A stretch of DNA of 62,916 bases, filler included, from Candidatus Woesearchaeota archaeon (GTDB lineage: Archaea > Nanobdellota > Nanobdellia > Woesearchaeales > GCA-2685855), in assembly GCA_002685855.1 (NCBI GenBank). It is 6 parts of 6 records of this genome, joined end to end, with 100 filler letters (N's around TTAATTAATTAA, not from the genome) between each part and the next. Parts side by side here need not be neighbours in the genome. Positions count along the whole stretch, not along the records: positions 25,765 to 48,228 come from NYYS01000048.1; 5 more parts are not named here. One strand, written 5' to 3'. The notes beneath the pieces are model-generated. The model had not been told where the DNA came from. It saw only the letters and a program-made list of their open reading frames with translations, and searched no databases. This document shows positions 45,233 through 51,037 of this stretch, piece by piece (the first letter of the stretch is position 1; each line of letters opens with the position of its first letter). The translations under genes were made by a program, and so were the position numbers.

Positions 45233-46129
45233 ATGGGAGACCCAAGAAAAACCAGGAAAAAGTATGAAACCCCCAAGCACCCTTGGAACAAGGCAAGAAT
45301 AGATTCAGAAAAAGCCCTTGTAAAAGAGTACGGATTCCGCAGAAAAAAAGAAATCTACAAAATGGGCAGTCTTTTGAAAGCCTACAAAGACCGAGCAAAA
45401 GATCTCATTCCCAAACAAAGCGTACAAGCAGACCTTCTCAGAAACCAACTTCGATCAAAACTCATAACACTCGGACTCATATCAGAAGAATCCCAAATAT
45501 CAGAAATCTTAGGTATTGAAATAGAAGAACTCATGAATCGAAGACTCGACTCCATCTTAGTAAAAAAAGGACTTGCACGATCACCCTTACAAGCACGACA
45601 ATTCATCACACACGGACACGTCCTAGTTTCAGAAAAACCCATTACAAGTCCCTGCTATCTCGTATCAACAGAACAAGAATCTCAAGTAATCTTTCGCGCA
45701 CGATCATCTCTTTACAGCATGGATCATCCAGAACGAATGCAGCCAGAAGAGATCGCAAAAAGAATAGAAGAAAAAGAGAACGAAGAGAAACAAGCAGCAT
45801 CTTCAGAAAAAGATCAGAAAAAATCCTCTTATCCTAAGAAAAGATATCAGAAAAAAACAACTCATCCTAAGAAAGCAGAAACAAAAGAGATCAAATCAAA
45901 AGAAGTTGTAGCCCAAGAAGAAATTCCTGTAACCGTAGAAGAGATCAAAGCAAAACAGGAAGAAGCAGAACAGCATAAAACCCACACAGTAGAAACAGAA
46001 GTAAAAGAAGAACTCGAAAAAGAAACAGAAAAAGGAATAAAGGAAGAGATCGAAAAAGAAGAAGGAAAACGAGTAAACACCCCACCTGAAAAAGAAAATC
46101 CTAAAGAGGTGAACGAAGATGCTGCGTAA
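45233..46129 (+). CDS. rps4: 30S ribosomal protein uS4 with long charged C-terminal extension
   Basis: MGDPRK.RKKYETP.HPW, RRLDS and [10 protein letters not shown]. Confidence 0.96.
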
Positions 46130-46523: not shown

Positions 46524-47303
46524 ATGAAACTTGAACTACTCAACAAAAAAGGCGAAGAACTCAACGTCCTTGTAAAAGGAGCAAACCCCATGTATATGAA
46601 CACCCTACGACGTGCAATGATCTCAGAAGTTCCTGTTATGGCAATTGAAAAGCTCGAGATCAGAAAAAACTCTTCTGCACTCTATGATGAAATTGTCGGA
46701 CACAGACTTGGCCTTCTCTCCCTCAAAACAGATCTTAAAACCTATTCAGAAAAAACAACGTGTAAATGCAAAGGAGCAGGATGTGCATCCTGCGAACTCG
46801 TCATGACACTTCAAGCAAAAGGTCCCTGCATAATCTATGCCTCAGATATTAAAAGCAAAGATCCCAAAGTAGTCCCAACCTACCCAAAAACACCCATTGT
46901 CAAACTCCTGGAAAACCAGGAAGTAGAGATAGAGATGACCGCAGTCCTTGGACGCGGCAAGGAACACACAAAATGGAGTCCCTGCCTTTCCTACTATCGC
47001 CTCTTCCCAAAGATAAGTGCCAAAGATGCACCCAACAGAGACGCAATAGTAGAAAGCTGCCCCGTAGACATCTTTGAACTCAAATCAGGAAAACTCACAG
47101 TCAATGACAAAAAAATTAAGGAATGCATCCTCTGCAATGCCTGCACAGAAACTTCAGACACAGTAAAAGTTGAAACAAAGGATGAATACCTCCTCACAAT
47201 CGAAAGCTTCGGACAACTATCCCCTAAAGATATACTTGAAAACGCAATCGAACAGCTCAACCAACAATTTGACGAAGTAGGAAAACTGGTAAAAGCTGCA
47301 TAA
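46524..47303 (+). CDS. rpoD: RNA polymerase subunit D (Rpo3)
   Basis: NTLRRAMISEVP, NSSALYDE...HRLGL, H.KW.P and a ferredoxin-like CP...CILCNAC. Confidence 0.96.
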   Translation: MKLELLNKKGEELNVLVKGANPMYMNTLRRAMISEVPVMAIEKLEIRKNSSALYDEIVGHRLGLLSLKTDLKTYSEKTTCKCKGAGCASCELVMTLQAKGPCIIYASDIKSKDPKVVPTYPKTPIVKLLENQEVEIEMTAVLGRGKEHTKWSPCLSYYRLFPKISAKDAPNRDAIVESCPVDIFELKSGKLTVNDKKIKECILCNACTETSDTVKVETKDEYLLTIESFGQLSPKDILENAIEQLNQQFDEVGKLVKAA

Positions 47304-47311
47304 AACAAAAA

Positions 47312-48163
47312 ATGAAGAAAAATAAATATGTTGCGGAAATTGTAGGTCTTAGTTTTGGTGATGGGAGCCTTACCTTTAGAAAGAACGGATCATTGAGGTA
47401 TCAACTTAGGGGTCATGTCGAAGAAAAAGTTTTTTATGACAAACATATTATTCCGCTTTTTGAGAAAAATATTGGGAAGGTAAATATCACGCATTATACT
47501 GGGAAGAAACCATATTATGGGATTTGTTCTGAAAATCAATACCTCTGTTTAGGTCTTAAATCTCTTGGAATACCTGTAGGTCCAAAGAAGGATCTAAAAA
47601 TTCCTGCGTGGATTAAATCTGATGAATCTTTTCTAAAAATGTTTCTTAGAGGTTTATTCGATACTGATGGAAGTTTGTTTTGTGGTAAAGATTATAACTA
47701 TTCTGAAAAGAAACACATTAAATTAAGAATGAGTCTAGCAAGCACTTCTTACAACCTGATTAAGGAAGTCAGTCTTTCTCTAAAGAGACTAGGCATACAT
47801 AATTTAATAATTAAACCTTACAAACAGAAGAAGAAAAACTGGAAAGATCTAAACAAAATTCAAATTGATGGCCCTAATGTTCAAGATTTTTTAAATAATA
47901 TTTCCTTGAAAAACTTCAAACATCTTTCAAAATATAAAATTTGGAAACATTTCGGTTTTTGTCCTCCACATACAAGTCTTAAACAAAGAGAAAGGATTTT
48001 AAGATCTTCAAAATATTCCTGTTCGAAATTTCCATTTATTTGTTTTGATACTGCGAGGGTGGCAGAGCCTGGTCAAAAAATTAGAGGTGAAAATCTTCTT
48101 TTTTTGACTAAATGCGCAAGTCCAATGTATTTGGAGCGTAAGGTTGAGGGCCTTGTCCCTTAG
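47312..48163 (+). CDS. Free-standing double-motif LAGLIDADG homing endonuclease; ORF overlaps tRNA-Leu
   Basis: Motifs VAEIVGLSFGDGSL and FLRGLFDTDGS; no intein splicing residues; T-rich compared with flanking genes. Confidence 0.9.
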   Translation: MKKNKYVAEIVGLSFGDGSLTFRKNGSLRYQLRGHVEEKVFYDKHIIPLFEKNIGKVNITHYTGKKPYYGICSENQYLCLGLKSLGIPVGPKKDLKIPAWIKSDESFLKMFLRGLFDTDGSLFCGKDYNYSEKKHIKLRMSLASTSYNLIKEVSLSLKRLGIHNLIIKPYKQKKKNWKDLNKIQIDGPNVQDFLNNISLKNFKHLSKYKIWKHFGFCPPHTSLKQRERILRSSKYSCSKFPFICFDTARVAEPGQKIRGENLLFLTKCASPMYLERKVEGLVP

Positions 48164-48195
48164 TGGGTGCGCGTGTTCGAATCACGTCCCTCGCA
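48053..48195 (+). tRNA. tRNA-Leu(GAG) with two introns: 21/22 (48077-48111) and 29/30 (48120-48141)
   Basis: Acceptor GCGAGGG/CCCTCGC. The spliced product gives D arm GCAGAGCCTGGTCAAATGC, anticodon arm CAAGG-TTGAGGG-CCTTG, a long variable arm and T arm GCGTG-TTCGAAT-CACGT. Confidence 0.9.
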
Positions 48196-48228
48196 TCATA
48201 CTACTATGAAAAAAATTCACAAAAACAA

Positions 48229-48328
48229 NNNNNNNNNNNNNNNNNNNNNNNNNNNNNNNNNNNNNNNNNNNNTTAATTAATTAANNNNNNNNNNNNNNNN
48301 NNNNNNNNNNNNNNNNNNNNNNNNNNNN
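48229..48328. other. Artificial contig spacer
   Basis: N-run with TTAATTAATTAA. Confidence 0.99.
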
Positions 48329-48370
48329 CCCCTGAAAAATTTTTCTATCTACCCCAAAAAACAGCCTGAT

Positions 48371-50601: not shown

Positions 50602-50847
50602 TTAGAGGAATATAGAAAATTCTTTTTCGTCAACTTCAGCTAATTTTAAAATGCCTTTAAGTGTTCCGATTTTGAGTTCTGAATGGTTTGGTACTACTGT
50701 TCCCCTTTCTCCCAGTGGAGTTTCCTTTTTAAGTATACTATGACTTCCTTTTTGTCGCACATAATGAAACCCAAACCGATTACAAAGAACTTTTACACAT
50801 TTTTTTCCAGAAATTTTCCTAAGCTTTGACACGTTCAGCAACCTCAA
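50602..50847 (-). CDS. hicA: HicA family toxin
   Basis: GF..VRQKGSH, VVPNHSELKIGTLKGIL; exact start uncertain. Confidence 0.9.
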   Translation of the reverse strand: MRLLNVSKLRKISGKKCVKVLCNRFGFHYVRQKGSHSILKKETPLGERGTVVPNHSELKIGTLKGILKLAEVDEKEFSIFL

Positions 50848-51037
50848 AGTTCTGTAAAACAGGCAGATCCAGAGCCTTCTGAGGAAATTCCTCCAAATAG
50901 AGTTCTGTTGCTTCTTTGAGGTTTGCTATGGCTTTTTCTAATGTAGAACCTTGAGATATTGTACCAAGCTCGGCACAGGTCGCTATAAACAAGTCATCTT
51001 CTTTTTGAATAACTGCTGTTAAGGTTGCCATAGTCAT
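50819..51037 (-). CDS. hicB: HicB family antitoxin
   Basis: FIATCAELGTISQGSTLEKAIANLKEATELYLE. Confidence 0.92.
   Translation of the reverse strand: MTMATLTAVIQKEDDLFIATCAELGTISQGSTLEKAIANLKEATELYLEEFPQKALDLPVLQNFEVAERVKA

Follow-up and report, generated by a model that had tools for sequence, protein, structure and literature searches.

The window analysed here, a stretch of 62,916 nucleotides (nt) from the Candidatus Woesearchaeota archaeon assembly GCA_002685855.1, contains a free-standing gene for a putative LAGLIDADG homing endonuclease, which lies between rpoD, encoding RNA polymerase subunit D, and a transfer RNA gene, tRNA-Leu(GAG), that is itself split by two introns and into which the endonuclease reading frame runs for 111 nt. 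Comparisons with relatives show the nuclease gene to behave as a mobile element that was inserted at the rpoD/tRNA-Leu spacer, and at orthologous loci it is strongly, albeit imperfectly, associated with small introns in the anticodon arm of the tRNA. We propose that the mobile nuclease is aimed at the anticodon arm of tRNA-Leu and that the intron serves as its shield and fellow traveller, a reading to which we would give about even odds (a probability of roughly 0.5). The locus belongs to positions 25765-48228 of the window, which are one contig (G000:C48) of the 953-kb, 66-contig and 94% complete genome of a tiny marine archaeon.

As judged from sequence and structural model, the open reading frame (ORF) is an intact gene for a single-chain LAGLIDADG homing endonuclease with two motifs, for which site-specific cleavage is predicted. 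Its product matches the Pfam family LAGLIDADG_3 (PF14528) with residues 107-197 (E 8.3e-12, 45.6 bits at a cut-off of 22.5), as likewise do the orthologues and a paralogue of the same genome. Both motifs can be recognized (GLSFGDGSL near residue 10 and GLFDTDGSL near residue 112), and the aspartates D17 (in GDG) and D119 (in DTDG) are invariant across a 23-member family alignment. An AlphaFold model that was built on this alignment reached a mean predicted local distance difference test score (pLDDT) of 84 and a predicted template modelling score (pTM) of 0.81, and it shows helices and strand pairs in the order that is expected for two alpha-beta-beta-alpha-beta-beta-alpha domains that together form a DNA-binding saddle. 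The pLDDT means of ten-residue blocks range from 77 to 98 over residues 1-230, and the score falls below 50 at residues 241-253 and 255-283, so that the C-terminal tail is predicted to be disordered. In a fold search against the PDB, 144 chains were found at E<=0.001, with I-Tsp061I as best match (2dch, E 8.6e-12), followed by I-DmoI (many entries) and then by I-OnuI-type enzymes and the bI3 maturase; the 36 top-ranked among the matches listed are LAGLIDADG homing enzymes, engineered variants, a maturase or an endonuclease-bearing intein. A phmmer search of the ORF protein against the PDB sequences gave no match at E<=1. Also the composition sets the ORF apart from its surroundings, with a guanine plus cytosine (GC) content of 0.28-0.35 versus 0.42-0.47 in rps11/rpoD, and with an AT skew that drops from about +0.2 to +0.5 in the flanks to about 0.

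The tRNA gene at 48053-48195 was missed by ARAGORN and by Rfam (E<=1). The region has a perfect acceptor stem of 7 bp, a T arm, a variable arm, an anticodon arm with the anticodon GAG, and two additional hairpins, each of which consists of a 4-bp helix with 3-nt bulges on both sides and thus has the form of a bulge-helix-bulge (BHB) motif. The minimum free energy of the precursor is -55 kcal/mol (z -4.0), and none of 200 shuffled sequences folded equally well. Such motifs are usually cut after the second bulged base, and the intron bounds that are given in Table 1 were predicted by this rule. Removal of both introns results in an 86-nt tRNA-Leu(GAG) that is called by ARAGORN, with all arms paired, and that is 97% identical to the intron-free allele of the relative L040, which means that without its introns the tRNA gene of the carrier would closely resemble an intron-free allele. 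A tRNA splicing endonuclease is encoded in the genome (PF01974, G000:C25, E 1.5e-29). The overlap of ORF and tRNA (48053-48163) takes in the first two exons and both introns completely, together with 22 nt of exon 3, and places the TAG stop codon in the variable arm. Intron 2 begins 67 nt from the 5' end of the tRNA, and the nuclease gene lies outside of the introns and ends inside of the tRNA.

A sequence-only reading of this stretch had preceded the present analysis, and much of what it described is borne out by these data: the two-motif frame 8 nt past the rpoD stop, the composition that differs from that of the flanks, the run of the last 111 nt through both introns, and a tRNA-Leu with introns at positions 21/22 and 29/30. 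It had given 48195 as end coordinate, which is correct for the 3' end of the tRNA and not for the ORF, which ends at 48163.

Evidence for an insertion comes from the relatives. The rpoD gene was searched for in 60 genomes of the same order, one per family (matches in 57 of 61, counting the focal genome G000), and the loci of the 29 best relatives were read by an intron-aware alignment to the spliced focal tRNA. In 26 of these 29 relatives, tRNA-Leu directly follows rpoD and leaves no space for a gene, and the ORF is therefore an addition to the usual order rps13-rps4-rps11-rpoD/tRNA-Leu/rpl18e, as had been supposed before. No tRNA-Leu could be resolved at the remaining three loci (L047, L049, L054), and one of the 26 (L044) has the anticodon AAG according to ARAGORN. 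The nuclease is absent from all 26 resolved loci. Nuclease-free joints were also found in sequencing-run contigs at 85% likeness; these are tRNA-Leu genes of other organisms and carry no evidence on polymorphism in the focal population.

Orthologues in the same slot, which were searched for with the single focal protein as query, exist in at least seven other organisms that are scattered over different GTDB families and orders. Identities of 47-67% were obtained for orthologues in this slot, which resemble each other more than the adjoining rpoD genes do. Between rpoD and tRNA-Leu(GAG), they were found in the Candidatus Woesearchaeota record L062 (58.8% identity), in the Candidatus Nanoarchaeia record L063 (G068, 53%), in L065 (G074, 47%), and in the metagenome contigs L082, L083 and L087 (56-60%), and from other orders of the class there are L089 (G436, 53%), L090 (G715, 47%) and L092 (G509, 45%), with an in-frame TAA in L089 that marks a pseudogene copy. 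Of 401 genomes that were sampled from the order, no more than 3 contain a match with an identity of at least 47%. The nearest genomes by rpoD (L033, L034 and L035, 55-56% identity) are without the nuclease, and L062, L063 and L065, with 47-48% identity in rpoD, have nucleases of 59, 53 and 47% identity, so that in case of L062 a nuclease of 58.8% stands beside an rpoD of 47.9%. On the weakly supported rpoD tree of 35 rows, the presence of the nuclease requires 5 changes. The patchiness, the low GC content and the pseudogene copy are as expected of a mobile homing-endonuclease gene, and mobility, which had been suggested for this ORF from the sequence alone, thus gains support.

Traces of the acquisition are left at two of the orthologous loci. 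In L063, an exact copy of tRNA positions 1-16 lies between rpoD and the nuclease gene, 3 nt past the rpoD stop and 6 nt before the ATG, and the same 16 nt recur 769 nt further on at the start of the real tRNA. In L083, the 5' end of one tRNA-Leu sequence type is found 17 nt after rpoD, and the working tRNA behind the nuclease is of a different type, with another 5' end and a self-consistent acceptor stem. As the leftovers end at tRNA positions 16-23, the break was inside of the tRNA, and these loci show that at least twice the resident tRNA-Leu was broken downstream of position 16-23 when the nuclease gene was acquired, with the incoming DNA supplying the tRNA sequence. Apart from this, a leader of about 125 nt, in which there are several short hairpins, is conserved between L065 (1285-1490) and L083 (1024-1194), where it is located between the leftover tRNA 5' end and the ATG. 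The focal window lacks this leader, which could be a promoter, a regulatory RNA or a remnant. Elsewhere in the focal genome, a tRNA-like 5' fragment with a T arm (G000:C65:1592-1649) has no matching 3' acceptor; about 930 nt downstream of it, a complete tRNA with an intron and with an identical 5' end follows (2578-2695), and between the two there is a 192-amino-acid ORF on the opposite strand. This fragment may be a further leftover of a tRNA-targeted insertion.

The second line of evidence is the association with introns. In the 26 nuclease-free alleles of the relatives, 13 have no intron, 6 have one at 37/38 only, and 5 have one in the D-loop (positions 20-22), of which 2 carry a second intron at 36/37 or 37/38; introns at 29/30 (L056, 12 nt), at 57/58 and at 59/60 (a D-loop case) were found once each. 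In nuclease-bearing alleles, the DNA shows introns at 29/30 and 37/38 in L062, at 29/30 in L063 and L089, and at 37/38, with 13 nt, in L065, L082, L083 and L087; L092 is interrupted, with an intron position that was not resolved. Including the focal allele, an intron at 29/30 or 37/38 is thus present at 8 of 9 resolved nuclease-bearing loci versus 9 of 26 nuclease-free loci (Fisher one-sided p 0.0065). The C-terminal tails of ORFs that run into the tRNA served as an additional readout of the tRNA sequence. In 31 orthologous proteins, 8 tails were uninformative, and the other 23 indicate an intron at 29/30 only (2), at both sites (2), at 37/38 only (16) or probably at 37/38 (3); an uninterrupted tRNA was read in none of them. 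With 5 of the 23 tails duplicating DNA loci, 18 further alleles were gained, and the combined data show an intron in the anticodon arm for 26 of 27 informative alleles with the nuclease versus 9 of 26 without it (Fisher one-sided p 1.3e-6), for which it has to be considered that 18 of the 27 calls come from peptide tails rather than from DNA and that Fisher tests overstate the case because the alleles are related.

The tree of the nucleases calls for at least 5 changes of the 29/30 state and also shows different tRNA types, but the association with an intron is retained. The focal enzyme itself is nested among enzymes that are found beside a different tRNA-Leu type with a 37/38 intron. A single founder cassette would not produce an association that was kept through at least five switches of intron position and several switches of tRNA type. 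The co-occurrence that the sequence-only reading had suggested holds for introns at 29/30 or 37/38 and fails for the intron at 21/22, which among nuclease-bearing alleles is found in the focal genome only, with D-loop introns occurring in 5 of the 26 nuclease-free relatives. The 21/22 intron is probably unrelated to the nuclease and typical of the lineage.

The neighbourhood to tRNA genes extends beyond this locus. In a survey of the wider family, 49 loci were collected, 44 of which have ORFs of 180-345 amino acids, and a detector for acceptor stem plus T arm (at a distance of <=60 nt or overlapping) found a tRNA-like gene at the 3' end of the ORF in 24 of these 44, of which 15 have ORF and tRNA on one strand and 9 are convergent, and a single further ORF has such a gene at its 5' end. 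As the detector missed heavily interrupted tRNAs, 8 further loci were added by eye, so that about 33 of the 44 members, a partly visual count, abut a tRNA gene. In comparison, only 3 of 686 other ORFs of at least 180 amino acids in the genome end at a tRNA-like gene. The 25 adjacent tRNAs that were found by the detector are of many kinds, with 18 exceeding 95 nt in length and 3 having no intron. In one subgroup, the ORFs run into tRNA-Arg(UCN) genes whose anticodon loops hold inserts of 13-24 nt. The focal genome also has a second, distant paralogue (29% identity), and at a distance of 5 nt from its end there is a tRNA-Thr(UGU) without an intron, which is encoded on the opposite strand. A protein search gave 202 clusters at E<=1e-10 in records of Nanoarchaeota, Woesearchaeota and Pacearchaeota, which are named "LAGLIDADG family homing endonuclease" or "hypothetical". 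A bias of introns to the tRNA half that is nearest to the nuclease was not supported, as the two Rfam-aligned convergent cases (L007, L029) have inserts in the anticodon arm and not in the 3' half, and nuclease genes inside of giant tRNA introns were found at none of 19 loci within a 1.6-kb span. When BHB candidates were enumerated and combined with ARAGORN for the other nuclease-adjacent tRNAs, many conflicting intron solutions were obtained.

As about 33 of 44 members abut a tRNA gene, the run into the tRNA is a habit of the family, and the earlier suggestion that the overlap simply reflects a lost stop codon does not agree with this, nor with a tail that is unconserved and predicted to be disordered. 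The alignment of homologues that had been proposed as a check shows that they align to residues 1 to about 232 only and that the tail remains unaligned. We infer that the 111-nt run is a by-product of insertion hard against the tRNA, and that the modelled disordered tail would be dispensable.

How might nuclease and intron work together? In a first step, which is the one evidenced by the distribution of the gene, a mobile free-standing LAGLIDADG gene has invaded the short spacer between rpoD and tRNA-Leu(GAG). In a second step, the enzyme most likely recognizes the uninterrupted tRNA-Leu(GAG), in or near its anticodon arm, and would break nuclease-free alleles, whereupon repair from the nuclease-bearing copy would import the nuclease gene together with neighbouring tRNA sequence. 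The tRNA is the presumed target because it is the only DNA at the locus that is sufficiently alike between families to provide a site of about 20 bp, and the spacer at the 5' side of the tRNA is not conserved between relatives. In a third step, the small BHB intron (at 29/30 here, at 29/30 or 37/38 in relatives) would split the site in the DNA and thereby shield the carrier copy, and the splicing endonuclease of the host would restore the tRNA at the RNA level. The nuclease would thus cut intron-less alleles and spare intron-bearing ones, and nuclease and intron could persist and move together, as in collaborative homing.

Several observations weigh against such a mechanism. Introns at 29/30 (in L056), at 37/38 and in the D-loop exist without the nuclease, and in L090, which is basal on the nuclease tree, the slot is occupied by an intact orthologue and the adjacent tRNA-Leu(GAG) has no intron. 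Distant members of the family abut intron-less tRNAs, namely Thr (in the focal genome), Ile, Lys, Leu-CAA and Leu-AAG, which means that an intron is not generally required, and inserts are present in about 13 of the 18 tRNA-like genes of the focal genome. A phylogenetically paired test of nuclease versus intron on the rpoD tree gave p 1, with only 2 pairs on supported branches, too few for power, and in 3 of 4 comparisons between sisters, the one without the nuclease is likewise interrupted by an intron in the anticodon arm. The exons of nuclease-bearing alleles are no closer to one another than to nuclease-free ones, and a direct repeat of the tRNA 5' end was not found in the focal region 47150-48228. 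As to a co-transfer of the whole tRNA with the nuclease, the exons of the focal tRNA are of a sequence type unlike that of the nearest rpoD relatives, but this is not decisive, as such types are scattered among nuclease-free genomes, too.

Several of these points would agree with a mobile nuclease that is aimed at the tRNA-Leu locus and for which introns are irrelevant, and we regard this as quite possible, if on the improbable side. The carrier would then be protected by the insertion itself or by base differences in the site, and the introns would stem from an intron-rich lineage or would hitch-hike on a co-copied piece of tRNA. The occurrence of the nuclease without an intron in L090, the intron-less tRNAs beside other subfamilies, the same intron positions in nuclease-free genomes and the many interrupted tRNA genes of the host can all be understood in this way, and in L083 a whole foreign tRNA arrived with the nuclease, so that hitch-hiking is possible. 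It is more difficult to explain on these grounds why 26 of 27 nuclease-bearing alleles have an anticodon-arm intron versus 9 of 26, and why this association outlasts the repeated changes of intron position and tRNA type that the nuclease tree shows. Moreover, a site that spans the junction is hard to square with homing across families when the spacer is not conserved, and the leftovers place the break inside of the tRNA.

It is very improbable that the ORF encodes a domesticated LAGLIDADG protein that is no longer selfish and has a role in the host, such as an RNA-folding helper or a regulator tied to tRNA-Leu and co-transcribed with the rpoD operon. In favour of such a role, the reading frame is uninterrupted and the catalytic residues are preserved, the gap of 8 nt makes co-transcription with rpoD probable, and LAGLIDADG maturases exist, with the bI3 maturase being among the fold matches. 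However, the gene has a sparse and patchy distribution (found in 3 of the 401 sampled genomes), the nearest relatives lack it, its GC content is below that of the flanks, pseudogene copies exist, and tRNA ends were left behind at two orthologous loci, all of which argues against a host function.

An assembly artefact, i.e. a chimeric contig joined at the conserved tRNA, might be suspected as the contig ends 33 nt past the 3' end of the tRNA and as contig C1 of the same bin looks chimeric at this same tRNA-Leu, but this can practically be dismissed, since an independent contig from another collection (L081) has 0 differences to the focal locus over 1427 nt and spans rpoD, nuclease and tRNA into rpl18e, rpl13 and rps9, one contig of the sequencing run X1 covers 46799-48185 with 0 differences, the acceptor stem of the focal tRNA pairs perfectly, and the gene order is identical in at least seven other organisms. 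As for C1, this contig (G000:C1) starts with a second rpoD that is 49% identical to the focal one and is followed by a tRNA-Leu with a different 5' part, a 33-nt D-loop intron and no 29/30 intron, whose acceptor stem 5' part mismatches its own 3' half; starting at about tRNA position 28, the sequence of C1 agrees to 99.8% with the downstream region of the focal strain as represented by L081. Probably C1 was assembled as a chimera that is joined across the conserved 3' half of the tRNA, or it stems from a second organism in the bin.

The order of genes on the focal contig is rps13, rps4, rps11 and rpoD, each supported by Pfam, followed by the endonuclease ORF and tRNA-Leu(GAG) (Table 1). The rps4 gene (45233-46129, +) encodes 298 amino acids, with a long Lys/Glu-rich C-terminal extension past the S4 domain.

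Table 1. Features of the rpoD/endonuclease/tRNA-Leu locus; positions refer to the window.
Feature	Positions	Strand	Basis
rpoD (RNA polymerase subunit D), last gene of the rps13-rps4-rps11-rpoD block	46524..47303	+	Pfam RNA_pol_A_bac E 2e-17, RNA_pol_L E 4.7e-14
8-nt spacer, rpoD stop to endonuclease ATG	47304..47311	.	sequence
Free-standing two-motif LAGLIDADG homing-endonuclease ORF (putative), 283 amino acids, ATG start	47312..48163	+	Pfam, family alignment, model, fold matches
Conserved core, residues 1-232: two LAGLIDADG domains, NPKH helix, GFCPP..LKQR..IL motif	47312..48007	+	homologue alignments, pLDDT
Unconserved C-terminal tail, residues 233-283 plus TAG stop; encoded by tRNA upstream region and tRNA	48008..48163	+	homologue alignments, pLDDT
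tRNA-Leu(GAG) gene, two introns, 143 nt	48053..48195	+	fold, spliced cloverleaf
tRNA exon 1, positions 1-21	48053..48076	+	spliced cloverleaf; contigs of other organisms stop matching at 48077
Intron 1, 35 nt, position 21/22 (D-loop); relaxed BHB: GGUC/GACU helix, AAA/AAA bulges, 3-bp inner helix, no outer helix	48077..48111	+	fold
tRNA exon 2, positions 22-29	48112..48119	+	spliced cloverleaf
Intron 2, 22 nt, position 29/30 (anticodon stem); full hBHBh': GCGC/GCGU helix, AAG/AAG bulges, 5-bp inner and 3-bp outer helix	48120..48141	+	fold; same-position introns in L062, L063, L089
tRNA exon 3, positions 30-73; holds endonuclease stop 48161-48163 in variable arm	48142..48195	+	sequence, spliced cloverleaf
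rpl18e, first 23 nt only, cut by contig end	48206..48228	+	continuation in L081 contig
Contig joint: runs of N around TTAATTAATTAA, other contigs beyond, not biology	48229..48329	.	sequence

Some further observations were made in the window and in the genome. On a different contig within the window (50602-51037, -), there are two small overlapping ORFs of 81 and 72 amino acids, which may be a toxin-antitoxin pair of the HicA/HicB type, to which they bear a resemblance. Two other ORFs of the genome end at or inside of tRNAs, namely G000:C31:10181-10801 (+) at Arg-GCG and G000:C36:26358-27353 (-) at Phe-GAA, and no Pfam family was found for either of them. Despite the completeness of 94%, only about 18-20 tRNA-like genes were detectable genome-wide (14 by Rfam, 6 by ARAGORN with default settings), and many tRNAs of this genome are probably too interrupted for standard tools. 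Finally, the rpoD-linked spliced tRNA-Leu(GAG) sequences of the 26 relatives (L033-L061) fall into about four sequence types that are scattered over the rpoD tree, nuclease-free genomes included, which could be due to past allele replacement or simply to a weak tree.

The proposed mechanism has a parallel in the collaborative (trans) homing of phages, in which a free-standing endonuclease acts beside an ORF-less or defunct group I intron, as in case of F-CphI with the psbA intron of cyanophage S-PM2 and of T4 mobE with the I-TevIII intron (PMC6083498, PMC2790892). In both cases the nuclease is encoded outside of the intron, as a neighbour of the gene that the intron interrupts, the two are found together across alleles, and the proposed logic is the same, i.e. 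the intron splits the cut site and is co-converted. The differences are that the focal host is a cellular archaeon, that the enzyme is of the LAGLIDADG type with a predicted cleavage activity, and that the introns are protein-spliced BHB introns of 13-35 nt in a tRNA, whereas those of the phages are self-splicing group I introns. The original papers on this phenomenon are reportedly those of Zeng, Bonocora and Shub. With I-Tsp061I and I-DmoI, its best fold matches, which are single-chain enzymes encoded in archaeal BHB introns, the focal enzyme shares two motifs in one chain and an archaeal host, but their genes are inside of rRNA introns and the focal gene is free-standing beside a tRNA. A relation to tRNA genes is also known from phages, in which SegB of T4 and the nicking endonucleases of the T5 tRNA region are free-standing nucleases within tRNA gene clusters (PMC13096335). 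These are likewise homing-type nucleases that are tied to tRNA genes and home without being inside of an intron; in contrast to the focal gene, they are GIY-YIG or HNH enzymes of phage genomes, their tRNAs have no BHB introns, and their ORFs do not run into the tRNA.

As to the spread of non-canonical BHB tRNA introns, Fujishima et al. (2010) are said to have inferred a gain of tRNA introns by transposition in Thermoproteales from the similarity of intron sequences, with no DNA-level agent named. The question is the same as ours, and what differs is the physical linkage of a nuclease gene and an intron-bearing tRNA at the present locus. One further source treats homing-endonuclease genes in BHB introns and free-standing elements in general terms (PMC6125680). 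A full-text literature search, judged by titles and abstract openings, gave no description of free-standing LAGLIDADG genes beside archaeal tRNA genes.

How non-canonical tRNA introns of archaea originated, and why they are so abundant in some lineages, is an old question, for which to our knowledge no DNA-level mechanism has been agreed upon. The locus and its orthologues offer a simple system in which this can be addressed, with one enzyme of 232 residues, one target gene of 86 nt, and natural alleles that differ in the presence of the nuclease and in their intron state (29/30, 37/38 or no intron). The linkage of nuclease and intron gives a testable route for the spread of the odd archaeal tRNA introns. 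If the uninterrupted gene is cut and the intron blocks this, collaborative homing as known from phages would extend to cellular archaea and to protein-spliced introns, the link between endonucleases and tRNA genes across the family would be explained, and the enzymes would be new single-chain LAGLIDADG scaffolds with tRNA-gene targets. More tentatively, and with the odds rather against it, the non-canonical BHB introns of DPANN archaea, and maybe of other archaea too, might owe their origin, movement and persistence to free-standing LAGLIDADG nucleases beside tRNA genes, which would be the engine at the DNA level. Each lineage of nucleases would attack the uninterrupted form of one tRNA gene, only split alleles would keep the nuclease, and cassettes of nuclease, tRNA part and intron would be copied between distant lineages, thereby reshuffling tRNA alleles, of which the scattered tRNA-Leu types on the rpoD tree would be a trace.

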